This document shows, in pieces, positions 1 to 20,746 of a stretch of 64,000 nucleotides of DNA; position 1 is the stretch's first letter; each line of letters opens with the position of its first letter. This stretch comes from a virus. Lineage: Duplodnaviria; Caudoviricetes. The stretch covers positions 148,278 to 212,277 of IMG/VR virus record IMGVR_UViG_3300028888_000053; one strand, given 5' to 3'. Position numbers and translations under genes: made by a program. The notes beneath the pieces are model-generated. The model was given only the letters and a program-made list of their open reading frames with translations, was not told the DNA's origin and made no database searches.

Positions 1-585
1 AACCATTAGGTAAAATTACAACGAAAGAAGATGAACTTAATGGTTTTTCAGGTGAAATGGTATATATCGATGGAAAATGTTCTGATATATTTATTTCTCA
101 TGCAGATTATGCCAATTATTTAGAAAGTGTGATTAATGAATACGTAGAATGGGAAAACGAAAAACAGTAGTACAAGAATATCTTGATTCATTAACTAAAG
201 ATGATTTATTAGCGATCATAAAGTATGGTCTTCGTGGTTCTAACGCTCCATTAGATGTTGATGTTGAAGACATTTTTACTTGTATCGGTTGTAAATACAT
301 TGAAGAAGGATGATTTACTTAAAAAGAATTTTGAATTTATTCCTGTGGCTAATAAGAATTGTCGCAGGAATTGCAATTATCATGGTTATTTATCCACTTG
401 ATTTGTTAGCCATCCCTATTTACTACGTCAAGACTGGACGTAATTATTTGTTAGACTTTAGACCGTTAGGATTTGCTATAGTGCGTTGGATTTGTGGATG
501 CGATTTTGAATGGAAAGATAATTAATATTAAATAATAATTTAAACAGAATCTCTTGGTAGCTCAATTGGATAGAGCAACAGTCTT

Positions 586-1202
586 TAATATTTGGAGCTT
601 TTATGTGGGAAATTGAGAAATTAATCAAGAAGGGTGATTATATGTATGCTTTAGTACCTGAACACCCTCATGCTACTAAAAATGGTTACGTGTTACACCA
701 TCGAATTGTTGTAGAAAACCATATAGGTAGATTACTCAATGCTGATGAAGTTGTTCATCATAAAAACCATAATAAATTTGATAACAGAATTGAAAATCTC
801 GAAGTGTTGAATTATAAAGAGCATGTTAGAAAGCATAGCTTAGAACAGGGAAGGAAATGGGCTGTACTCAAATGCCCTATATGTGGAAAAGTGTTTGAGA
901 TGCCTTATAACAAAACTGTATATCAAAAATATCCTAACGATTCTAATAAAGCACAATGTTGTTGTAGAGCGTGTGGGTGTAAGTTAGGTAGATTGAAACA
1001 ACTGAACAGAATAACTCATGAAATGGAGATTGCTATATCGGGGAATCTCCTATCTGTATACAAAAAATATACAGAGGACAACCCCGAGGTAACCTTAGAT
1101 TAAGAGGGTACCGTAGAGACTATACGCAATCCGCCTGAAATGGCGAAGGGATAGTCCAGACTACAACATTTCATAATGGCTATAGTAATATAGAGTAGTA
1201 AG
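586..1202 (+). mobile_element. Group I intron in tRNA-Arg(UCU), inserted after U34, carrying an HNH ORF
   Basis: 5' exon ends in U and intron ends in G; P4 TCGGGG/CCCCGA, P3 GATTGC/GCAATC, P7 GACTA/TAGTC (GTAGAGACTATACG ... GATAGTCCAGAC). Confidence 0.9.
603..1103 (+). CDS. Intron-encoded HNH homing endonuclease with C-terminal Cys-rich domain
   Basis: HHRIVVENHIGR...VHHKNHNKFDNRIENL HNH motif; CPIC and CCRAC; lies inside the tRNA intron. Confidence 0.88.
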   Translation: MWEIEKLIKKGDYMYALVPEHPHATKNGYVLHHRIVVENHIGRLLNADEVVHHKNHNKFDNRIENLEVLNYKEHVRKHSLEQGRKWAVLKCPICGKVFEMPYNKTVYQKYPNDSNKAQCCCRACGCKLGRLKQLNRITHEMEIAISGNLLSVYKKYTEDNPEVTLD

Positions 1203-1259
1203 CTAAACTGTGGGTCTTGGGTTCGAGTCCCAACCAGGAGACTAAAAATATATAACAAT

Positions 1260-2861
1260 ATGATATCAATAATAATTCCAATTTATAATAGAGAATTATT
1301 CTTAGAGAAATGTTTGAATTCTGTACAAAGACAAACATTTGTTGACTTTGAATGTATTCTTGTTGATAATAATTCTACTGATCATAGTGTAGAAATTTGT
1401 CAATCATTTTTATCCGATGATAGATTCAAACTTATTCATTGTCAAGAACAAGGAGTTAGTCATGCCAGAAATAAAGGTATAGAATATGCTTCTGGAGATT
1501 GGATAATGTTTATTGATTCTGATGATTACATAGCAGATAATTTTGTAGAAATGCTCTATAAAACTATGCTAGATCATCCTGGGTATAAATGTTATACGTG
1601 TGAATCTATTACTTTACAACATACAAATATTTCTATTTGGAACGACTTGCCAGAAGGTGAGAGAACAAAAGATGATGTTACCAATTTTAATATTTGGAAA
1701 AGATGGGCAACAGTTTGGAATGCTCTTTGGGCAAAAGAAGTATTTGATCATATTAAATTTAATACCAATGTTAAATTAGGAGAAGATGAATTAGTTGACA
1801 TTGAATACTGGATGAGATATGGAAAATTATATCATATTAAATATCGTGGTTATTTCCATTATGTAAACCCATCGAGTATTAGTGTTGATCAGAATAATTA
1901 TAAACATAGTACAATGTTATTATTGTGCCTTGTTGAAAATTTAATTCATAAATACGATAATTTAACCAAAGAAATTGAGAATGCTATTAGATACATTTAT
2001 AATGTAAAGTATAGTGATAAGTATCCAGGAATTGATTATGTTGTACCTTATACTAATGCAACGAAAGATAAGATAAAAGCATTAATGCAATTCTATAACT
2101 ATGAAGGAATGGTTGATGATGATGAAGAATTAGCAAAAAGATATAATGCTGAAGATACAATCTTTAATATGTCAATACGGTCTGTTGCTAAAAATTTACC
2201 ATTTATCAGATTAATTCATCTTATTGTAGAAGATGAAACACACATTCCCGATTGGATAGATATTGAGAAGGTGCATATTGTTTATCATAAGGATTTTATG
2301 GAAGATTACCCAAGTTATAATCCTTGTTGTATAGAATATTGTCTGGGAAATATACCATTTCTATCAGAGAAATTTTTATATGCAAACTCAGATTATATTG
2401 CTACAAAAGAATTATCGGCAGATGATTTCTTTGATGAAGATAAAACTAGAAATCGCTTTCGAACAGCAGCACAATCTGATAAACAATGTGATATTATCTT
2501 TAACAATTCGTATCATTTAATATTTGATGAAGGCACACCTATATCACCAATAAAACATTTCTTTACTCCAATGGTAACAAAACGAGTAAAAGAAGTACAA
2601 GAGCTTTATAAAGATAAGTTAGTATATACTAAGTTTAGGAGTAGTGCAAATTACAATCAATATATTTATCCTTTATATGATCTTAAAATTGGTGCGATTA
2701 GTGAGTCAACTTTAATTTGTTATACAACAGAAGGTGAGTTTAATATTCAAAAATGGCAAAGAGCAGATGTTGTGTGCTTAGAGAATATTGATGATACAAA
2801 TCCTTTAATAACAGTATTTGGTCATTTCTTCCGTTTTGAAAAATGTAAATACGAAAAATGA
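1260..2861 (+). CDS. GT2 glycosyltransferase fused to a Stealth-family sugar-phosphotransferase domain
   Basis: N-term SIIIPIYN...VDNNSTD...SHARNKG...FIDSDD; C-term IDYVVPY, RSVAKNLPFIRLIHLIV, IEYCLGNIPFLSEKFLYANSDY, KFRS resemble Stealth CR1-CR3. Confidence 0.78.
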   Translation: MISIIIPIYNRELFLEKCLNSVQRQTFVDFECILVDNNSTDHSVEICQSFLSDDRFKLIHCQEQGVSHARNKGIEYASGDWIMFIDSDDYIADNFVEMLYKTMLDHPGYKCYTCESITLQHTNISIWNDLPEGERTKDDVTNFNIWKRWATVWNALWAKEVFDHIKFNTNVKLGEDELVDIEYWMRYGKLYHIKYRGYFHYVNPSSISVDQNNYKHSTMLLLCLVENLIHKYDNLTKEIENAIRYIYNVKYSDKYPGIDYVVPYTNATKDKIKALMQFYNYEGMVDDDEELAKRYNAEDTIFNMSIRSVAKNLPFIRLIHLIVEDETHIPDWIDIEKVHIVYHKDFMEDYPSYNPCCIEYCLGNIPFLSEKFLYANSDYIATKELSADDFFDEDKTRNRFRTAAQSDKQCDIIFNNSYHLIFDEGTPISPIKHFFTPMVTKRVKEVQELYKDKLVYTKFRSSANYNQYIYPLYDLKIGAISESTLICYTTEGEFNIQKWQRADVVCLENIDDTNPLITVFGHFFRFEKCKYEK

Positions 2862-3077
2862 TAACAACTATTTATTTTGTTGGAGTTGTTTTAGCTTTTA
2901 TTGTTAACACAATTCATCTTTATGTTTTCTTTAAAGATGTTCGGAATAAACCGTATAGTACTTATAATAAAGTATTAGTAGCAATTTATAGTTCTATAAT
3001 CATTGGATTTTTATCTTGGATAGGACTATTCTTTGTTTCTGTTTCTTTATTTTATAGACTCAAAAACCCTCAAGAAT

Positions 3078-3641
3078 ATGACAGTAATATATTCTAATGC
3101 TGAAGATGCAGATACTATAATTCTGCAAGAAATTTGGAGAGGTATTCCAGACGTTACTGTAATAGAAATTACATCTAATACAGTTGGGTGGGAAGACGTT
3201 GTTAATGATGCTATTGACAATGAAGATGATACATTAATCTTTGCTGGGCATGGTACTATACATGGATTATTAGCACCATTAAACTATTCATCAGAAGAAT
3301 ACATATTACATAAATTTAATGTGAACTTAATACACGCTAAAAGAAGTATATGTATTTGGTGTATGGCATCTACATTCTGTTTTAATCATAGATTTGAATC
3401 ACTTGCTACCTCTATGTTTATTTCTAATCCAAGAGAAGCCTTCGAGAATGGATGTTGTGATGTTACAAGAGATGATATTGAACGACAAAATATATTATTT
3501 TATCGTGACTTGAATTACTTGTTACAAAGCGATATCCCATTTAGAGATTGGAGAATGAAATTAAAAGTGAATGTTGATATGTACGACGACGTCGATGTGT
3601 TTAATAGAAATGGATTATGTTACATTTTATCTAATAAGTAA
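3078..3641 (+). CDS. Hypothetical protein, possible caspase/CHAT-fold peptidase
   Basis: ATG at 3078 overlaps the upstream gene; IFAGHG and ICIWC could form a His-Cys dyad. Confidence 0.35.
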   Translation: MTVIYSNAEDADTIILQEIWRGIPDVTVIEITSNTVGWEDVVNDAIDNEDDTLIFAGHGTIHGLLAPLNYSSEEYILHKFNVNLIHAKRSICIWCMASTFCFNHRFESLATSMFISNPREAFENGCCDVTRDDIERQNILFYRDLNYLLQSDIPFRDWRMKLKVNVDMYDDVDVFNRNGLCYILSNK

Positions 3642-3841
3642 AGTTTTATGATAATGTTTATTAGTATATATTTAGGAATAGCGTTATATCTAATTGTATT
3701 GGCCTTGTTATACTGCATAGTAAGACACTATTCTGGACCAGATTCTCCGGCGTTGTTATTACCTTTAATGTGGCCTGCACTTCTATTTCTATTGCCTGTT
3801 TTATTAATATGTTTTGTTATATTAAAATTATGCGATAAAAT

Positions 3842-4351
3842 ATGGCCGCAATAGATAAATTGTACGTTGATTCATATTATGAATATAATAATCTCAGAAC
3901 ATGGGCTATAGCCTATTATCCTGAATTATTATTTTATTTCTATGATATCACAGTTGATTATTCCACATTTGAGAAGAGAAGACAAGAATGGATTAGAAAA
4001 TTTAAAACACAAGTAAGAAATACGTTTACAAGATTTGGTAAGTTTAATACAGCAGAAGAAGCTGTTAATAATCTTATCAAATATTATAAACGAACTGCAG
4101 GTTATGATTGTTCTAGAGAGCAAGCTGAAGATGAATTTAAGTATTGGTCTCATCAAATGGAAATAATAGAAAGTGATTCACTTTTAGAATTAGAATATAA
4201 ATTTCCAGTAATGAACACACCATTATCTGTAGATAAAAAACTAAAGTGGATTTGTCCAATTCCTTGTATTAGAAAGTATCTTGAAGAACAATGTGGATAT
4301 AAAACTCACTGGTATCATAAGTTATTTTGGAAAGGTAAAAAACATTTTTAA
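3842..4351 (+). CDS. Hypothetical phage protein
   Basis: 169 aa ORF in a tightly packed array. Confidence 0.6.
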   Translation: MAAIDKLYVDSYYEYNNLRTWAIAYYPELLFYFYDITVDYSTFEKRRQEWIRKFKTQVRNTFTRFGKFNTAEEAVNNLIKYYKRTAGYDCSREQAEDEFKYWSHQMEIIESDSLLELEYKFPVMNTPLSVDKKLKWICPIPCIRKYLEEQCGYKTHWYHKLFWKGKKHF

Positions 4352-4882
4352 TTACAATGTATTATTCTTAAATAAAAATGAATAACGGAATTATTCCATA
4401 TAAAAATAAAATTAAACCTATATTTATAGATAGTGATAAATCTGTAAGATGTATAGATTGTATTTATTTTTCTTCGTTTGAAGGTTATTATAATGATTCG
4501 TGTGATGAATCAGATTGGTTTTGTGTTGAATATTGCCCGCTACGAAAGATTAGGCTTAAAGATCCTTTTAATAAAATTTGCTGTGACCAATTTGTTGCAC
4601 AAGACAAACATATTAACTGTGAAAATTGCAAGTTTTGTGTTCGAGATTACTCGTCTTATCAATGTCAAAAACGCAATCTAATAGAAACTACTTCACACTA
4701 TCGTTGTTCTGAATTTAAATATAGAAATGAAAATAATCCAGTTTCTAATGAAGAAATTTGTACTTTTTTATGTGGTTTAATCATTGTAACAACGTTTGTT
4801 TGTTTATGTGCATTTTGTTAACATAACCTATGGCTAGTATAATAATTGCTTATTTATACTTCAATGGTAATTAATTAAAGTT

Positions 4883-4954
4883 GCTCCAATAATTAAACGG
4901 ATATAACATGAATCCTCTAAGTTTCTATTTCGGGTTCGATTCCTGGGTAGGGCA
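4883..4954 (+). pseudogene. Degenerate tRNA-Arg-like sequence
   Basis: D-arm (A)TTAAACGGATATAAC and T-loop TTCGATT like Arg tRNAs; mismatches in acceptor, D and anticodon stems; loop CCTCTAA lacks U33. Confidence 0.6.
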
Positions 4955-5103
4955 CTATTAACATTTTTAATATGGGATTATTTGGAAATGTAATTCGAGA
5001 AGTTAGAGATACAGTCAAAGATTCTTTAGAAGAATGTGGCTGTAAATCTGTAATATCAGAAGTCAAAGATGTTTTTAAAGCATTAATTGGCAAATAAAGT
5101 GTA

Positions 5104-5666
5104 GATTCCGTAGCTCAGTTGGTAGAGCACAGCACTTTAAACTAAAAGAAGAGTGCATAGGCGAGAAATCCCTATGTAGAATCTCCTAAATTCGGTGGAA
5201 ATCCTTAGCCTACTAGATACAATACTGTTATGGGATGGCTACAGTACATTAAACAATAATGTGTAAGGACTATACCGAGCGAAAATAGTATCTCAGATAA
5301 GTCTAATTAACTTATATCGTAAGAACTGAGCAGGCGTTAAAAGTAGAGCAAATCAGATATGTCTACATACTATAATCGTGTAGAGGCCAAACGGGAGATA
5401 TCTAAGTTGGAATTGTATTCCTCAATGGTAATGAGGTATCTAGCAATCGTACTAGGTAGGTGTTCAAATCACCAATACTCTTGCAAGAATTCCAATAAGA
5501 TAAAGAGATGGTCCAGATCACAACAGACACAAGTCTTTAGGCAACCTCTCTAAGAGCAGCATAAGACTATAGAGGTGATAGTGCAAGAATTCTAAAGTGT
5601 TTGGCTATGGTAACATAGTGTGATAGGTTAATGCTGGGGTCACGAGTTCGAATCTCGTCGGAATCA
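5104..5666 (+). tRNA. tRNA-Lys(UUU), split by a group I intron (exon 1 5104-5137, exon 2 5628-5666)
   Basis: Acceptor GATTCCG/CGGAATC, anticodon stem CAGCA/TGCTG, joined loop CTT|TTAA gives TTT, T-arm ACGAG-TTCGAAT-CTCGT. Confidence 0.92.
5138..5627 (+). mobile_element. Group I intron without endonuclease ORF in tRNA-Lys(UUU), after U34
   Basis: Guide GAGT pairs with exon ACTT (U.G at splice site); P4 TTCGGT/ACCGAG; P3 ATCTCC/GGAGAT; P7 GGCCA/TGGTC; terminal G 5627. Confidence 0.88.
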
Positions 5667-5693
5667 CTATTAACAATTTTTAATATAATTTTA

Positions 5694-5727
5694 CTTGAAA
5701 TTTGGTCAAAATAGTATTATATTTGCA
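5694..5727 (+). promoter_or_regulatory. Bacteroidota-type primary-sigma promoter
   Basis: TTG (5695-5697), 20 nt spacer, TATATTTG (5718-5725); matches TTTG-N19/21-TAnnTTTG. Confidence 0.7.
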
Positions 5728-5738
5728 ATCGGGATGAG

Positions 5739-5830
5739 GAAAGCAGCTCGTAGTTTGATTTGAATTAACAGTTTTTTTGCTTTTTTGTTTTCATATTGAT
5801 TCAAATTAAACCTATGAGCTGCTGTTTTTC
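5739..5830 (+). ncRNA. Candidate hairpin small RNA
   Basis: About 27 bp stem (5742-5768 with 5796-5823) whose mismatches are three G.U pairs plus one bulge; directly after a promoter; U-rich 3' end. Confidence 0.55.
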
Positions 5831-5880
5831 AGATTATATTACGCTTTAGATGTTGAATGTTAATTTAAATTATTTAATTT

Positions 5881-6471
5881 ATGAAGAAATTCATTTTTGC
5901 CGTTATGGCATTGTTGTGCATGGTTGCATGTAATCCAAAGAAGAGTGAAACTGTTCCTGTTCAAGAGGAAACACCCGTAGAATTGATCGTTGGTAATACA
6001 ATCTCAACTGATCGTCAGTACATGTTTATGAATTATGGAGGTGATTATCGTTGGTATGAGACTTGTATTACTCTTGATGATTATCTTGATAGTGAGAACT
6101 GCAACGGCTCAATTGAAAGTATTTCTAATGTTTTCCAAGTAGTTAAAGGTGATAGTACTTCTTTTGATCCATATGTAATCATGTCATCTTATACTCGTAC
6201 ATCAAGTAATACTGAAGTTATATCTGGATTTTGGGTTGGTGATGAGCCTATGAATGAAGAGGAAATTAATTTAACTTTTAAAGATGCTTATGAATTCTTA
6301 ATGGAAGCTAATTGTCCTAAACCTCATTCAAGACATTGTGTTCTTAGAAAAGAACTTGGACCTAAAATAGATGTGGCACCACAATACATTTTTGGCAATC
6401 AACAGTATCAAGTGTATGTTGATGCCTTTGATGGTATTGTAACGGATCATAATCCGGCTTTTAATGAGTAA
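5881..6471 (+). CDS. Lipoprotein of unknown function
   Basis: MKK + hydrophobic stretch + MVAC lipobox. Confidence 0.7.
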   Translation: MKKFIFAVMALLCMVACNPKKSETVPVQEETPVELIVGNTISTDRQYMFMNYGGDYRWYETCITLDDYLDSENCNGSIESISNVFQVVKGDSTSFDPYVIMSSYTRTSSNTEVISGFWVGDEPMNEEEINLTFKDAYEFLMEANCPKPHSRHCVLRKELGPKIDVAPQYIFGNQQYQVYVDAFDGIVTDHNPAFNE

Positions 6472-6628
6472 TCACTTTGTTCATTAGCATAAGAGCCCTG
6501 TAGCGCGCAGGGACGTGCAGATACATCATTGAATGTATAGTAAATCGTAACGTTACCTATCCCTTGATCTCTGAGATAGCTGCGGTTCAGTAGTTTTCCT
6601 GAAAATACGAAGAGATTATTTTTTATTT

Positions 6629-6963
6629 GCCTAGGTGATGAAAAGGTAAACATTCCAGACTTGCATGTAACTAATTTAATATCAGTTACTTAGAGTGCAT
6701 TTAATCGAAAGGTTTAATGTAGAATCTCGCTAACAAACAGAAACCTTGAATATGGTGACATATTCTTTGGCGATGGCTCACTAAATGGATATTATATCCT
6801 AAATGGCGTAGAGACTATATACGAGACACCTAAACGATAACGTATGGTGATGAAATAGTCCAGACTACAACATCTCAAGTTAGATGGCTTATTTAAAAGT
6901 AAGAGTAGTAAGAAAATCTGGTGGAACGTAGGTTCCTTGGGGGTTCGAGTCCCCTCCTGGGCA
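6629..6963 (+). tRNA. tRNA-Leu(UAA), split by a group I intron (exon 1 6629-6662, exon 2 6913-6963)
   Basis: Acceptor GCCTAGG/CCTGGGC + A73, anticodon stem CCAGA/TCTGG, loop CTT|AAAA gives TAA, long variable arm GGAAC..GTTCC, T-loop TTCGAGT. Confidence 0.92.
6663..6912 (+). mobile_element. Compact (250 nt) group I intron in tRNA-Leu(UAA), after U34
   Basis: GTAGAGACTATACG...ATAGTCCAGACTACAACAT...GAGTAGTAAG shared with the Arg intron; P4 looks degenerate. Confidence 0.85.
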
Positions 6964-6985
6964 CTATCTAATAAATACAAAGTAA

Positions 6986-7321
6986 ATGTCTACTATAAAC
7001 GATATAATTAATTATTTTAATAATCTTCCACCATTTAAATGTGTAGATGACATACCTGATATTCCATTTTTTAAGGATCGAGAATTGTACACAAATGTAA
7101 TAGTTAAAAATTTAATACGTTGTGGTGCGATTCCAAAGAAAGATCTTAAAATTGGTAAAACATATCAAGGATCATGTAGAAATACAAATAAAGCTATATG
7201 GAATGGTACGGAATTTGAATATGAAAGATATAAGTTTGGTTACTTATACGAAGATGCAGTTAATCATTTTGAAGATGATGATGGTTACGATGTTTTTGTG
7301 CCGTTAAAAGAAGACTTTTAA
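6986..7321 (+). CDS. Hypothetical phage protein
   Basis: 111 aa ORF after tRNA-Leu. Confidence 0.6.
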   Translation: MSTINDIINYFNNLPPFKCVDDIPDIPFFKDRELYTNVIVKNLIRCGAIPKKDLKIGKTYQGSCRNTNKAIWNGTEFEYERYKFGYLYEDAVNHFEDDDGYDVFVPLKEDF

Positions 7322-7360
7322 GTTTTTCTCATAGAGAAATGTTATCATAGTTTAAATTTA

Positions 7361-7399
7361 AGGTGGGCTAGTCTGCGAAGATAGGCCCATCTGCTTTTT
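7361..7399 (+). terminator. Intergenic hairpin, probable terminator
   Basis: GGTGGGCT..TCT-GCGA-AGA..GGCCCATC followed by TTTTT. Confidence 0.55.
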
Positions 7400-7748
7400 A
7401 ATACATTAGATATGAAAATAAGAAAAGATCCATTCGACAATCCAGAGATTGTCATCGGCAAATTAATCCTTACATTTACAAAGAAATTGCCAAAATACAA
7501 AGAAGCATGGTATAAGAAGTGGTTTTATACTGGTAAAAACCCTCAATCATATTACGGTAGGATCATGTGGTTTACTTGGTATTATGATAAGAAAAGTTTA
7601 TATGTATGATTAAGTTTGCACAAAGAGTTTTATTGGATGTTCTTGCCCAAACAGAAAGAGCATCTAATCAGTCTGACTATTACCAAGGAAAGATTGATGG
7701 TATTAAGAGTTGTATAGCAGCCTTAGGTCGTATTGTAATTAAAAATTA

Positions 7749-7821
7749 GCCTCTTTAGCTTAGTTGGTAGAGCAACTGATTTGTACTCAGTAGGTCGTGG
7801 GTTCAACTCCTACAAGAGGCT
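7749..7821 (+). tRNA. tRNA-Thr(UGU), intronless
   Basis: Acceptor GCCTCTT/AAGAGGC, anticodon stem ACTGA/TCAGT, loop TTTGTAC. Confidence 0.92.
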
Positions 7822-7852
7822 CATTTTATTTCTTTTTCTTTTTGTTTGATTA

Positions 7853-7893
7853 GAAAGGTGTCTTGATTTTAATTGGGACACCTTTCACTTTTT
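7853..7893 (+). terminator. Intrinsic terminator-like hairpin after tRNA-Thr
   Basis: GAAAGGTGTCTTGATT/AATTGGGACACCTTTC then U-run. Confidence 0.6.
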
Positions 7894-7902
7894 ATTAAGA
7901 TT

Positions 7903-8481
7903 ATGTCAGAAGAATTTATAAAGTTAATTCAAGAGTTAAATAGAGATAATACAGACAAGTTATTAACTACTATTAAAAAATTAGGTTTCTTTGAAGCTCC
8001 GGCTAGTGCTAATCATCACTTGAATAAGTTTAGTGGTTTGGTAGAACATTCTATTTCTGTGTATAATTGTGCTTTGCATTTAAAAGTTATGATACAATCT
8101 ATTGATCCATTTTGGAAAGCTCCAGAAGATGATTCAATACGAGTTGCAGCATTACTTCACGATGTATGTAAAGCAGATACGTATTATACAACAGTAAAGA
8201 GACAGAGAATGCAAGATGGAACATGGAAAGATGTTCCTACTTATGGAGTTGATTATTCTCAATTACCATTAGGTCATGGAGAAAAGTCTATTTCCATTAT
8301 CTTGCAATGTGGTTATCCATTAACTAGAGAAGAGATGTTGGCTATTCGTTGGCATATGTCTTCTTTTAAATTGAATCCGTTTGATATGGAAGAGATGGGT
8401 AACTTTCGTTGTGCTTCGATAGAACCATTGGTTTATTTAATTCAAGCAGCAGATCAATTATCAACACACTTAAACAAATAA
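7903..8481 (+). CDS. HD-domain phosphohydrolase
   Basis: APAS..HH...GLVEHS...LLHDVCK...GHGEKS...IRWHM...AD; ATG 7903 preferred to TTG 7873. Confidence 0.85.
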   Translation: MSEEFIKLIQELNRDNTDKLLTTIKKLGFFEAPASANHHLNKFSGLVEHSISVYNCALHLKVMIQSIDPFWKAPEDDSIRVAALLHDVCKADTYYTTVKRQRMQDGTWKDVPTYGVDYSQLPLGHGEKSISIILQCGYPLTREEMLAIRWHMSSFKLNPFDMEEMGNFRCASIEPLVYLIQAADQLSTHLNK

Positions 8482-9014
8482 TATTATGAACAGTAGAGTA
8501 TCTAGAAGAGTTAAGTTGTATCCTGAAAAGGGAAATGGTAAACATTCTGATTTTAACTTCCATAAAGAATATGGAAATTATCAGGAGACACCTGATCGTA
8601 TGACACCATCAGCTCATACGTTGTTGGTAAATCGTGCAAAAGCATTTCTTAAACATGCTGGTAGTAAAACTGTTAAACAATTGCATCTTGCAGTAGCATG
8701 AACCGAAAATCATTAAAATCCAAGTCAAAAAATCATTTGATTGGATTGATTTATGCTAAGACAGCAGAATCAAAGAAATGGTTGAAGTTATACAATCAAG
8801 CATCTAGCGAATATAATGCAGTACTTGAAAAGTATACTGATTATCGTAAAAAATTAAACGATAAAAAACGCAAAATACAATTGTTAGAGGAAGATATTGA
8901 TGATCTTAAAGCTGAAAAACGTAATCTTCTATCAAATAGTATTAACTACAAAGCTGGGTTCTACATAATGAGTATTGCAGCACTCATATTTTTAGCTATT
9001 ATTATATTTTAACT

Positions 9015-9047
9015 GTACTGGTGATCTGTTATGGGTCACCAGTATTT
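9015..9047 (+). terminator. Terminator-like hairpin
   Basis: GTACTGGTGATC/GGTCACCAGTAT inverted repeat just after the stop of 8698-9012. Confidence 0.55.
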
Positions 9048-10140
9048 AAATAATCAAATATGAAAAGAAAAGAAATAGATTTAGCACAATTGACTATTAG
9101 GTTTAATCATCTTCGTAGAATTAGTTTAGGAAAGAAATATTCCAATGAAGAGATGGTTAATTTATTAAAAGACGTAGGATTTGTTTATCCAACAATTGTC
9201 TTCATGTTTTTGAAGCAAGGAGGATTTATAGACAAATATAATGTTCAGAATAGAAAACTGAATATATTTACAAGTTTAGAAATTACTCCTACTCAGTTGG
9301 CTCAGACGATTGAAAAAGCTCGTCTTTATCAAAAAGCAGCTCAGCATCCAGAGCAAGTACAACCATCGCAATGGATTTCAGTAGAATCCTTTATGCAGAT
9401 ATTGGCTGAAAAACTTAAAAATGCTGGAGCAGCAAGAATTGGTATCATTAGAAGTGATATCGATATCAAAGCAGTATTAACTGCATGCGGCGTTAAAGCA
9501 CAAAAGATTCAATATTCATATCAGGATTTATAATCCTAAGCCTCTTGCTTATTCTCTTATGATGAAGTATAGTAATCATTGGTTAAGAATGAGATATTGA
9601 CAGTAGAAACTGTAATTTCTATCTTCCCACTTATAAGATAAAGTGGATATACTTATGATTAACTTTCGTGCATTGCAGAAGAATCTTAAGTGTCAGTATG
9701 TGAATGTCGTTCTTAAAGGTGAAAAGACACGTATCGAACTATCAATAGATCGTGGTGGTCGTATCATTGATTGTACACGCGTTGGTCGCTTGTTTGATCG
9801 TATCCAGGGACGTCAACTCTTGTCCGTAATGAATGGAGTCAATAACCAAGTAATTGAGGAGATCAATGACGAGGTCAATATCATTAATGGACTACATTTC
9901 ATCCCGACAATTTAAACTGCCGGATGAATTCGTTGTTAACGTGCGCTTATATAAAGATATAATTCTAAGAATTGATTTTATAAATTTTGGAAGAGGAAGA
10001 ACTCTACCAGAAGAGATTATTAAATCATTAGGACTAGACTTATATCATATAGCGCACGTTAAAGATCAAGTCAGGTTACACTTCTTTGAATGTGATTGTT
10101 CATATGATAAGAAGAATAAACTTATAGTTAAACATTAATG

Positions 10141-10170
10141 GGTCAGAGGAGTTTTTCTCCTCTGGCTTTC
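10141..10170 (+). terminator. Hairpin upstream of sigma factor gene
   Basis: GGTCAGAGGAG/CTCCTCTGGCT followed by a pyrimidine run. Confidence 0.55.
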
Positions 10171-10178
10171 TATTTATT

Positions 10179-10955
10179 ATGAGACAAATTAAATTTACAA
10201 ACGGTTTTTATACTAAAGGAGAGGAGTCTTTATTCCGTTATTTTACTGATGTAAGACATCTTTCTAAAAGTATCGAAGACAAGCCAGTAGAAGAAAGAAC
10301 TCCAGACGAGCTTATTAAAACACATTTAAAATTTGCTGTTTCGGTTGCAAAAAAGTATATGCATCTTGGTATTCCTGTTGAGGATTTGGTTCAAGATGCT
10401 AACATAGCGTTAATTAATGCAGCTCATAAATTTGATCCGAGTAAGGGATTTCAATTTACATCGTATTGTGTACTTGCAATTCGTCAGTATCTTATTGATG
10501 AAATAAGACGTAATAAGTCAGGTATCAAGTTTGGTGCTGATATGAGAAAAAAGATGAATGATTTACGTGAATTGTGTGATGACTTGACACAACGTGATGA
10601 GTATATGTATACAATTGACGAAATTAAATCATTATATCCCGAACTATTTACAGAAGGTTTATATCGTGCATTAAACTCTGAGAACCAAATACCATCAGAT
10701 AGTATAGATACTGATTTTGCAAGTGAGCCTGATAATGTTGATCAACATATTGATCAAGAATATATCAAGAAAAAATTGCATCAGCTATTACACATTCTTA
10801 CTCAGAAACAACAAGAAGTAATTAAAAAGTTGTATTTCGAAGAGAAAAGTATCGAAGTTGTTGCAGGTGAACTTAACTGTACAAGAGAAAATGTTCGTAT
10901 GACAAGAGAAAACGCATTACGAACATTAAGAAAACATAAACAATTTTTAATATGA
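10179..10955 (+). CDS. Sigma-70 family RNA polymerase sigma factor (divergent)
   Basis: Region 2 LKFAVSVAKKY...EDLVQDANIAL..AAHKFDPSKGFQFTSY; region 4 HTH VAGELNCTRENVR. Confidence 0.85.
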   Translation: MRQIKFTNGFYTKGEESLFRYFTDVRHLSKSIEDKPVEERTPDELIKTHLKFAVSVAKKYMHLGIPVEDLVQDANIALINAAHKFDPSKGFQFTSYCVLAIRQYLIDEIRRNKSGIKFGADMRKKMNDLRELCDDLTQRDEYMYTIDEIKSLYPELFTEGLYRALNSENQIPSDSIDTDFASEPDNVDQHIDQEYIKKKLHQLLHILTQKQQEVIKKLYFEEKSIEVVAGELNCTRENVRMTRENALRTLRKHKQFLI

Positions 10956-11849
10956 CAATTAAAGTTTTAACTTTTAGTCGTGCTTCTGGATTATCTGAGA
11001 TGGCATGTATAGAGAGTTCCGCTCAAGATGGATTTCAAATAAAAGATGCAATTAGAAGATTGGTCAATGATGATGAATTGATCCAGGAAGACGCTCCAGT
11101 AATAATTGGTACACATTCTTATGTTAGATTTATATCTGACAATTGGATTGTTACAGTAACAACGTAAGATTATGAAAGCAACAGAAATGGTTGATCAGTT
11201 ACTTCAGTTAATAGATCATCATGGCGATTTTGAAGTAGTTCCTCAGGACATTACAATGGAGCCTGATGAAGAAACTGGCGTTTTTGAAGATATTGCAAGT
11301 GTAGAATCTGTAGAATATGTGGAATTACCTATTGAAGAAGGAGTTTTTCCATGTTTTCTAATAAAAATTCAGTAATATGAAAATTTTTAAAAGGTATGAA
11401 TTTACTGGTCCTCAGGGTAAACGTTGGACCGAATGGTTTGAATTTGATACAGCCTTAACTGTTGACGAGGCAAACATGAAAATTGAGGAAGCTAAGAGTT
11501 TGAATGCGGGAAGAAATGAAGAATATGTAATACGATGATTAAGTTTGTTGTCATTATATCATTACTCATTTTCTTTGCACTTTTAGCATTAATTATTCAT
11601 TATTATGGTCGCCAATAGTGTATATGTTGTAAAAGTATGGGGTAAGTATGTAATGCAATTTACTCCTGCTTTTATAACATTAGATTTTGAGAAAGCATTA
11701 GATTATTACTCTAACTTTATCTTCAAACTGCGTAACGATCATCCTGAATTACAGGTTACCTCCGAAAAGAAAGATAGTTTGACTGGATATGTAGGTAATG
11801 ATTTCTTTAGTATTAAACTACAATCTTATCCACTTAATAAAGAATTAAT

Positions 11850-12515
11850 ATGAAATATCATGTAGGTGATGAAGTATATTTCCAATGTGGAGATAAAATT
11901 TATTCTGGACGTATAGAGATCGTAGATCGATATGGCGCTCTCGGATGTAGAGAAACTTCATATGATATTTATGTAGCATCACAAAATATGCTGTATAAAC
12001 ATGTTGAAGAAAGTTACGTTTTTACTGGTAAGCCGATTCATGTAGATAATATTATGGAAAGAGACTATAGAAAACTTATAAGAAATTTCAAACCTAGCAC
12101 TTATTGTAAGGGATGGGTTAAAAATGTAATCGTTGACAATAACACCACAATTTGTTACTATGAATTTAAGGTTAATGTTAACCTTATTATTCAAAACATT
12201 GGTTCATTCTCGCATTCTTACCTTATGAAGTTAGCGAAGCATTTTAATGCGCGTTTGTTAAATCCAAAAGGTGAGTTTCATTTTGTTACCGTAGGTAAAG
12301 CAAGATGTGCTGATACTGATACTTATGATAAACAAATAGGAGAGAAGATAGCTTTGGCTAGAGCTAAGTACAAAGCTAATAATATGGTGTTTTGTTTAAC
12401 AGAAAAGATACAAAGACATTTCTTTGAGGTTTCTACTAATATTACATCTTCTAAACTTGAATTAGAAGCCATGATGCGTGCTCAGCAAAAGTATATTAGT
12501 AAACTGACCAAATGA
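11850..12515 (+). CDS. Hypothetical phage protein
   Basis: 221 aa; C-terminal ARCADTDTYDKQIGEKIALARA motif, similar to one in 32695-33222. Confidence 0.55.
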   Translation: MKYHVGDEVYFQCGDKIYSGRIEIVDRYGALGCRETSYDIYVASQNMLYKHVEESYVFTGKPIHVDNIMERDYRKLIRNFKPSTYCKGWVKNVIVDNNTTICYYEFKVNVNLIIQNIGSFSHSYLMKLAKHFNARLLNPKGEFHFVTVGKARCADTDTYDKQIGEKIALARAKYKANNMVFCLTEKIQRHFFEVSTNITSSKLELEAMMRAQQKYISKLTK

Positions 12516-14709: not shown

Positions 14710-14781
14710 GTCTAACGTAGCTTAATGGGAAAGCGCTGGATTTTACCGGTAGATCTAAGTTCGAATCTTAGCGTTAGACCA
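14710..14781 (+). ncRNA. tRNA-like RNA with His-like body and shortened anticodon arm
   Basis: 8-bp GTCTAACG/CGTTAGAC acceptor (G-1:C73-like), D-arm GCTT/AAGC, perfect T-arm CTAAG-TTCGAAT-CTTAG; 6-nt loop ATTTTA. Confidence 0.7.
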
Positions 14782-20641: not shown

Positions 20642-20714
20642 TGGAGGTTAGTATAATTGGTTAGTACATTGGATTTTGGTTCCAATAGTTCTGATTCGAG
20701 TTCAGAACCTCCAA
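20642..20714 (+). tRNA. tRNA-Gln(UUG), intronless
   Basis: Acceptor TGGAGGT/ACCTCCA (U1-A72), anticodon stem TTGGA/TCCAA, loop TTTTGGT. Confidence 0.9.
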
Positions 20715-20746
20715 CAAAGTAATAACAAGTTTAAACTTATTTATTT

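Follow-up and report, generated by a model that had tools for sequence, protein, structure and literature searches.

Three tRNA genes of a large phage split in the anticodon by introns of probable bacterial group I type

Split tRNA genes and the anatomy of their inserts

The last 64 kb of a phage genome (IMG/VR record IMGVR_UViG_3300028888_000053; 212,277 bp, rated complete, overall GC content 31.5%) was analyzed; this whole stretch of 64,000 nucleotides (nt) is called the window. Near its start lie three tRNA genes, for tRNA-Arg(UCU), tRNA-Lys(UUU), and tRNA-Leu(UAA), each interrupted in the anticodon by an insert. An earlier reading, made from the sequence alone (the sequence-only reading), had described them as three U34 tRNAs split between nucleotides 34 and 35 by related group I introns. 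The evidence below makes it highly likely that the three inserts are bacterial-type (IC3) group I introns, each splitting a phage tRNA gene at the U34/N35 junction. The exons, the introns, and the one open reading frame (ORF) assigned to a protein family are as follows; R1 is a covariance model described in the next section, and exons were placed by ARAGORN on joined exons.

551..585, + strand: tRNA-Arg(UCU) exon 1 (nt 1-34)
586..1202, + strand: Arg intron, 617 nt, terminal G1202; R1 match at 1022-1167, pairings checked by script
603..1103, + strand: HNH endonuclease ORF, 166 amino acids, in the P2 loop of the Arg intron; Pfam HNH_3
1203..1241, + strand: tRNA-Arg(UCU) exon 2
5104..5137, + strand: tRNA-Lys(UUU) exon 1
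5138..5627, + strand: Lys intron, 490 nt, no credible ORF, terminal G5627; partial R1 match at 5454-5524
5628..5666, + strand: tRNA-Lys(UUU) exon 2, discriminator A5666
6629..6662, + strand: tRNA-Leu(UAA) exon 1
6663..6912, + strand: Leu intron, 250 nt, no ORF, terminal G6912; R1 match at 6719-6871
6913..6963, + strand: tRNA-Leu(UAA) exon 2, with a long variable arm

Default ARAGORN and Rfam, run on window positions 1-12000, reported a tRNA-Thr only, and the three split tRNAs were not called. In-silico removal of the three inserts gave regular cloverleaves, which ARAGORN returned as Arg-UCU, Lys-UUU, and Leu-UAA, in agreement with the sequence-only reading. The junctions were rederived without the intron mode of ARAGORN: candidate exons were first filtered by their pairing, then joined and passed to ARAGORN. 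The intron mode itself places junctions wrongly, so that the Lys gene is called as Leu and Phe is reported for several Leu genes. All three inserts lie between nt 34 and 35, are preceded by U, and have G as their last base, and exon 1 ends in C32-U33-U34 in every case, the CUU end that had been claimed. A single junction giving another anticodon is formally possible, at 33/34 in the Lys gene (yielding Asn-GUU). It was rejected because the intron guide at 5151-5154 pairs with 5134-5137 such that the U.G wobble falls on U34, because the discriminator base is A, and because the homologous introns labeled L073 and L074 permit Lys-UUU only.

The split tRNAs decode the top codon of the phage in each of their three families (AAA, 73% of Lys codons; AGA, 55% of Arg codons; TTA, 53% of Leu codons). 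Apart from a decayed Lys copy, the genome has no other genes for tRNAs reading AAA, AGA, or TTA. Standard tRNA finders overlook all three split genes, so the phage seems to be without tRNAs for the Lys, Arg, and Leu codons that it uses most.

P1 to P9 were placed by hand in all three introns, and each helix was checked by script. All core helices of each intron, the P3/P7 pseudoknot included, could be formed by Watson-Crick or G.U pairs. P1 has 3 to 4 bp with a U.G wobble at the 5' splice site (U585.G595, U5137.G5151, and U6662.G6693), each wobble backed by 2 or 3 further pairs, and GAG pairs with C32-U33-U34 in every intron, which bears out the short CUU-pairing guide of the sequence-only reading. 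P7 is composed of a G-C pair, a bulged A, and five or six more pairs. In the Arg intron, its G-binding element is formed by G1116, A1117, and 1118-1123 with 1151-1157, and the Lys and Leu introns have equivalents. P9 is branched, and the terminal G (omega G) is present in all three introns. The individual pairings, all on the + strand, are given below.

Arg intron, P1 and P10: guide GAG 595-597 with 583-585; G594 with the first base of exon 2
Arg intron, P2 to P4: P2 599-605/1017-1023, P3 1028-1033/1126-1131, P4 1038-1043/1082-1087
Arg intron, P5 and P6: P5 1048-1051/1075-1078 plus 1054-1060/1068-1074, P6 1088-1094/1106-1112
Arg intron, P7 to P9: P7 1118-1123/1151-1156, P8 1132-1135/1142-1145, P9 1160-1164/1195-1199
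Lys intron, P1 and P10: guide 5151-5154 with 5134-5137; 5149-5150 with 5628-5629
Lys intron, P2 to P5: P2 5155-5161/5171-5177, P3 5182-5186/5394-5398, P4 5191-5197/5273-5279, P5 5202-5206/5265-5269
Lys intron, P6, P7, and P9: P6 5285-5291/5367-5373, P7 5385-5389/5509-5513, P9 5517-5521/5620-5624
Lys intron, P8: 5400-5402/5499-5501 plus 5407-5414/5488-5495
Leu intron, P1 and P2: guide 6693-6696 with 6659-6662; P2 6697-6706/6711-6720, with a GAAA loop
Leu intron, P3 and P4: P3 6725-6729/6822-6826, irregular P4 6735-6739/6774-6778
Leu intron, P5 and P6: P5 6743-6745/6769-6771 plus 6748-6754/6759-6765, P6 6787-6790/6796-6799
Leu intron, P7 to P9: P7 6813-6818/6855-6860, P8 6827-6830/6846-6849, P9 6864-6868/6905-6909

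The periphery differs among the three. Large inserts occupy L5, L6, L8, and P9a of the Lys intron, and the Leu intron carries a tetraloop-receptor-like motif in P8 alongside the GAAA loop of P2. The Arg intron lacks both the loop and the receptor, since its P2 loop is occupied by the HNH ORF, which begins inside the 5' strand of P2 and at its 3' end overlaps P2' through P6. The ORF matches Pfam HNH_3 with an expect value (E) of 4.9e-10 and is 51 to 52% identical in protein sequence to the ORFs that occupy this position in two other Arg-UCU introns, those of L017 and L028; this conservation fits a working homing endonuclease that would hold the lineage in tRNA-Arg(UCU). A 64-amino-acid ORF inside the Lys intron had no family match in Pfam.

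Two other classes of intron, the protein-spliced bulge-helix-bulge intron and the group II intron, were dropped on the basis of position, size, U/G termini, and core homology.

Covariance models and covariation

The training set of R1, a covariance model limited to the P3-P8 core, consisted of 12 introns, all from other phages. On the whole 212-kb genome, it gave exactly three matches, and these were the three inserts: the Leu intron (163.5 bits; E, 1.9e-32), the Arg intron (58.1 bits; E, 1.6e-10), and the Lys intron (26.2 bits; E, 7e-4), the last matched in part because of its large inserts. R1 also matched about 115 bacterial tRNA introns at full length (E, 1e-16 to 5e-05, with one weak extra at 0.0026), including cyanobacterial tRNA-Leu(UAA) introns, Azoarcus-type tRNA-Ile(CAU) introns, and a Vibrio tRNA-Arg intron.

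The helices were then judged by covariation in 56 phage copies. Paired cells amounted to 86.6%, compared to 64.5% for shuffled and 34 to 41% for slid controls, and 30 of the 37 core pairs had changed on both sides (compensatory changes). By helix, 90% of cells were paired in P3, 96% in P7, 98% in P8, and 94% in the main five-pair helix of P6; in P5, the level was about 90% in the main seven-pair helix and 73% in the three-pair basal part. Anatomy, homology, and covariation are direct observations on the three introns and agree with the claim of the sequence-only reading that the inserts are group I introns related to each other.

A search with group I covariance models had been proposed as a check, and its outcome was divided: R1 found all three introns, and Rfam RF00028 (Intron_gpI) found none. 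RF00028 gave no match to the window or to the whole genome, and none at E of ≤10, on short subwindows, or on the Arg core alone. The same model scored the phage family member L024 at 54.3 bits (cutoff, 50), cyanobacterial tRNA-Leu(UAA) introns at 80 to 86 bits, and bacterial homologues above the cutoff at 54.5 to 86 bits, with L165 below it at 43.3 bits. None of the RF00028 seed sequences is bacterial (Williams 2020 preprint). Because L024 and bacterial homologues are detected and the seed holds no bacterial sequence, the silence of RF00028 on the window introns is a failure of sensitivity and no true negative.

Several points nevertheless weigh against the group I assignment, the RF00028 result among them. 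The bacterial loci matched by R1 were retrieved by one 17-nt core pattern that lies within R1, so that their scores are somewhat too high. For the covariation count, the alignment used had itself been fitted to most of the structure. In the Leu intron, P4 has 3 Watson-Crick pairs and 2 mismatches, and among relatives of the Leu type its inner pair alone covaries cleanly (A-U, C-G, and G-C). Finally, four large inserts interrupt the periphery of the Lys intron, and R1 matches only part of it.

A further insert is found outside the window, in a second tRNA-Lys(UUU) gene, this one with U32 (G000 C1 131873-132017). This 71-nt insert (131907-131977) also lies at 34/35 and ends in G, and it is without the entire ribozyme core; in its interior, it is similar to the insert in the P9 periphery of the L117 intron. 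On these features it looks like a deletion derivative.

Such a copy suggests that decay happens in this genome, and the irregular P4 of the Leu intron and the partial match of the Lys intron likewise favor the view that one or more of the three introns (the Leu and Lys types are the candidates) have decayed and no longer splice, leaving the tRNA gene a pseudogene. We regard this as quite unlikely. The Leu subtype with the same P4 occurs in many phages, where the inner P4 pair covaries; the Lys type retains all helices, and its P6 and P9 differ from those of relatives by compensatory changes; and tRNA genes for AAA, AGA, and TTA are otherwise absent from the genome, save the decayed Lys copy. 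The split tRNAs serve the commonest codons, so nonsplicing copies would be costly. Intact IC3 introns therefore remain our reading of the three inserts.

Predicted splicing and spread across isotypes

For intact IC3 introns of this anatomy, splicing would begin with a precursor fold in which C32-U33-U34 of exon 1 is bound by a 3- to 4-nt guide (GAG or GAGU). The 5' splice site would be marked by the U34.G wobble and attacked by free guanosine; the terminal G of the intron would then dock in the P7 pocket, and the exons would be ligated to give the anticodons UCU, UUU, and UAA. The introns would be selfish mobile elements, tolerated because they splice well enough. That they are catalytic, mobile, and nearly neutral for the phage is what we infer.

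Splicing could also depend on a phage or host maturase or chaperone, or on another intron copy acting in trans. The weak P4 of the Leu type points that way, as do the lack of an L2 tetraloop and P8 receptor in the Arg type, the overlap of its ORF with the core from P2' to P6, and a coreless mini-intron elsewhere in the genome that could be removed only in trans or by proteins. Such dependence is unlikely, however, since all catalytic-core elements are present in cis and close bacterial relatives of the same class self-splice. Self-splicing is established for the Anabaena and Azoarcus introns.

The relation among the three copies was examined through the strings that the sequence-only reading had reported as shared. 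Four of them recur exactly: the 19-mer at 1151-1169 and the 10-mer at 1193-1202 of the Arg intron are repeated in the Leu intron (at 6855 and 6903), as are the 9-mer at 5150-5158 and the 12-mer at 5174-5185 of the Lys intron (at 6692 and 6717). A fifth string, the 14-mer at 1113-1126, occurs in the Arg intron only; the exact overlap is 12 nt (1113-1124 = 6808-6819), as two additional bases are present in the Leu copy. By shuffling, 0.02 occurrences of the 19-mer are expected, and together with the R1 expect values this excludes chance. Two of the core strings retrieved dozens of IMG/VR contigs, with nearly all hits in tRNA genes, and by this comparison the shared strings are conserved core elements of the whole family that signify no special link among the window introns.

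The three copies are evidently three diverged sublineages of one family and no recent duplicates. In blastn among the three window introns, no match passed 1e-4, and duplication within the genome is not indicated, since each copy is closer to introns in other phages. The Arg intron aligns over its full 617 nt, ORF included, with the Arg-UCU introns of L028, L037, L038, L040, and L017. The nearest relative of the Lys intron is the L092 intron, at 34/35 of a tRNA-Ser(UGA) (identity by segment, 70 to 100%, with some segments at 93 to 100%); its other relatives sit in tRNA-Leu(UAA). The Leu intron is 83 to 88% identical to the Leu-UAA introns of L044, L055, and L007 and about 80% identical to the tRNA-Lys(UUU) introns of L073 and L074. 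Megablast of the region against GenBank phages returned nothing, and distant blastn was needed for matches. A 16-nt pattern from P7'-J7/9 of the Lys intron gave chance matches only in viral contigs, whereas a pattern from its J6/7-P7 did retrieve relatives there.

Across the family, the hosts split at 34/35 are Leu-UAA, Lys-UUU, Arg-UCU, and Ser-UGA, all with CUU at 32-34. A fifth host, an amber-suppressor-like tRNA-CUA, is split at 35/36. The guide follows the insertion site: GAG stands opposite CUU at 34/35 and GGAG opposite CUCU at 35/36, so that in the suppressor tRNAs the U.G wobble has moved one position relative to the 34/35 sites. In the Arg introns, the first G of GGAG pairs with C35 of exon 2. 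The intronless tRNA-Thr (7749-7822) and tRNA-Gln (20642-20715) of the window have U32 and hence UUU at 32-34, as had been noted. These comparisons support movement of the intron family between isotypes that offer the same short CUU/GAG target. The proposal that one lineage had spread through a CUU guide thus is supported for the family and is not supported within this genome, with its three diverged sublineages. The host pattern of the relatives fits occasional relocation in which the short P1 pairing acts as guide and reverse splicing is one possible route, an idea put forward for the Lys and Leu types because they have no ORF and their relatives sit in several tRNAs sharing CUU at 32-34. A single ribozyme family in at least five tRNA species constitutes a natural series.

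Amber-suppressor-type tRNA(CUA) genes split by this family, all at 35/36, were seen in L241 (RefSeq NC_055898, crAss-like phage cr115_1; 1513-1667), in L242 (Lak-B1, MK250020; about 860-1104), and in L016, L039, L045, L071, L076, and L088. The loci are without annotation in public records. Being both split and unannotated, these are suppressors of TAG-recoded phages that tRNA finders would miss. Four records (L006, L042, L243 [Lak-C1], and L244 [Lak-B2]) have paired R1 matches about 70 nt apart on the same strand, which could be two tandem split tRNAs or a nested arrangement. In the genome analyzed here, TAG is frequent inside long ORFs when TAA and TGA alone are counted as stops, and it makes up 36% of CAA+CAG+TAG genome-wide, which fits its use as a sense codon; a search of the genome found no clean tRNA-CUA.

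The distribution also bears on whether the introns are kept because they benefit the phage, by delaying or gating the supply of tRNAs for A-ending codons or by shielding the anticodon loop, which is absent from the precursor, from host anticodon nucleases such as PrrC and PARIS AriB. The three introns do lie in the three most-used codon families, the genome has several tRNA-Lys variants, and the same family splits the amber-suppressor tRNA of TAG-recoded relatives, where timing would matter. Benefit of this kind is nonetheless very unlikely: nothing found gave evidence of regulation or of a timing or shielding role, the spliced tRNA is an ordinary nuclease substrate, and patchy distribution, an endonuclease gene, and decayed copies are the usual marks of selfish elements. 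In addition, related phages have intact copies of the same tRNAs beside split ones (in L012, an intact tRNA-Lys by a split tRNA-Leu). A more specific conjecture, highly speculative to the same degree, is that anticodon group I introns gate tRNA supply in TAG-recoded large phages, acting on the AAA, AGA, and TTA tRNAs here and on the suppressor tRNA in cr115_1 and Lak-B1. If it were true, splicing efficiency would set the onset of phage decoding capacity or of the code switch, or would limit exposure of the anticodon loop to nucleases; the idea would be of more interest for the split suppressor tRNAs of the recoded relatives. Selfish introns remain the simplest reading.

Other tRNA-like features were observed in and near the window. 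Peripheral loops (P8 or P9) of family introns contain tRNA-like modules at window positions 5415-5487 and in L091 and L008/L018; in the window Lys intron, only a T-arm-like hairpin is clear (5459-5473), and the insert of the L091 intron resembles a full tRNA. The segment 4883-4954 is tRNA-like (22.7 bits, under the Rfam cutoff, and not called by ARAGORN), with an anticodon-loop region readable as CUA and a trailer nearly that of the tRNA-Lys gene; it could represent a tRNA in decay or, alternatively, a suppressor whose acceptor stem is poor. A tRNA at 14711-14780 has a regular acceptor stem, a T arm, an encoded CCA, and a U-rich 6-nt anticodon loop in which ARAGORN gives a 2-nt anticodon; it looks like a tRNA-Lys-like variant. 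In another tRNA (G000 141380-141453), the anticodon loop is 9 nt long. A 533-amino-acid protein with family-2 glycosyltransferase and Stealth CR2 domains is encoded at 1260-2861, after the split tRNA-Arg and before the other tRNA genes.

Comparison with known introns

Cyanobacterial tRNA-Leu(UAA) introns share with the window family the U34|A35 site, the CUU/GAG P1, the terminal G, the P3-P9 core, and the J6/7-P7 sequence, and R1 matches them at full length with 47 to 57 bits. Unlike them, the window Leu intron has a remodeled P4-P6 region and a P1 extension hairpin, is not detected by Rfam, and sits in a phage gene. Closest in sequence are the tRNA-Leu(UAA) introns of Proteobacteria, Acidobacteria, and Bacteroidia and the Azoarcus-type tRNA-Ile(CAU) introns (IC3), which R1 scores at 65 to 90 bits; these share with the phage introns the guide-P2 junction, the P2 GAAA loop with its P8 receptor, and strings in P7-J7/9. 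The hosts differ: in the bacterial sample they are nearly all Leu-UAA, CAU, and Arg-CCU, whereas in phages the family is also found in Lys-UUU, Arg-UCU (at 34/35), Ser-UGA, and suppressor CUA. Bacterial tRNA group I introns have been sorted into 21 tRNA/position classes (Williams 2020 preprint).

Introns in phage tRNA genes have been noted before. Conserved introns in tRNA genes of the Prevotella Lak megaphages were described as "enigmatic," with no class given (Devoto et al. 2019, PMC6784885), and a survey from 2026 gives counts of tRNA introns for recoded jumbo phages (PMC13037316). Like the window introns, those of Lak phages are conserved and lie in phage tRNA genes, and some contain a tRNA-like module. 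The two papers assign no intron class and take junctions from tRNAscan in eukaryote mode, whereas class, junction rule, and structure are worked out here. R1 scored 72 to 128 bits on Lak-B1, Lak-B2, and Lak-C1, blastn gave matches in Lak-B and Lak-C records, and in Lak-B1 a family intron splits tRNA-CUA; R1 also matched RefSeq crAss-like phage cr115_1, at an unannotated locus. The "enigmatic" introns are thus probably explained as the same group I family, a match made by genome and not against the supplementary intron table of the paper. The IC3 assignment offers a testable answer to the nature of these giant gut phage introns and supplies a simple rule for placing junctions: the splice-site U forms its U.G wobble with a GAG or GGAG guide, and the intron ends in G. 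The blind spot of standard tRNA finders that affects the three window genes also hides the split amber-suppressor tRNAs of recoded crAss-like and Lak phages.

In phages, HNH homing endonucleases are known from group I introns of protein genes, for example, the DNA polymerase introns of SPO1 and SP82. The Arg intron resembles these in carrying an HNH ORF within a peripheral loop, as a mobile element of a large phage of virulent type. It differs in its tRNA host gene and in its ribozyme, which is of the IC3 bacterial tRNA type and not of the IA type usual in phage protein genes. According to a 2014 review (PMC3984707), all phage introns known by then were in protein genes, and in the literature searched we found no paper classing phage tRNA introns as group I. 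The window introns are a known kind of element in a little-described setting.

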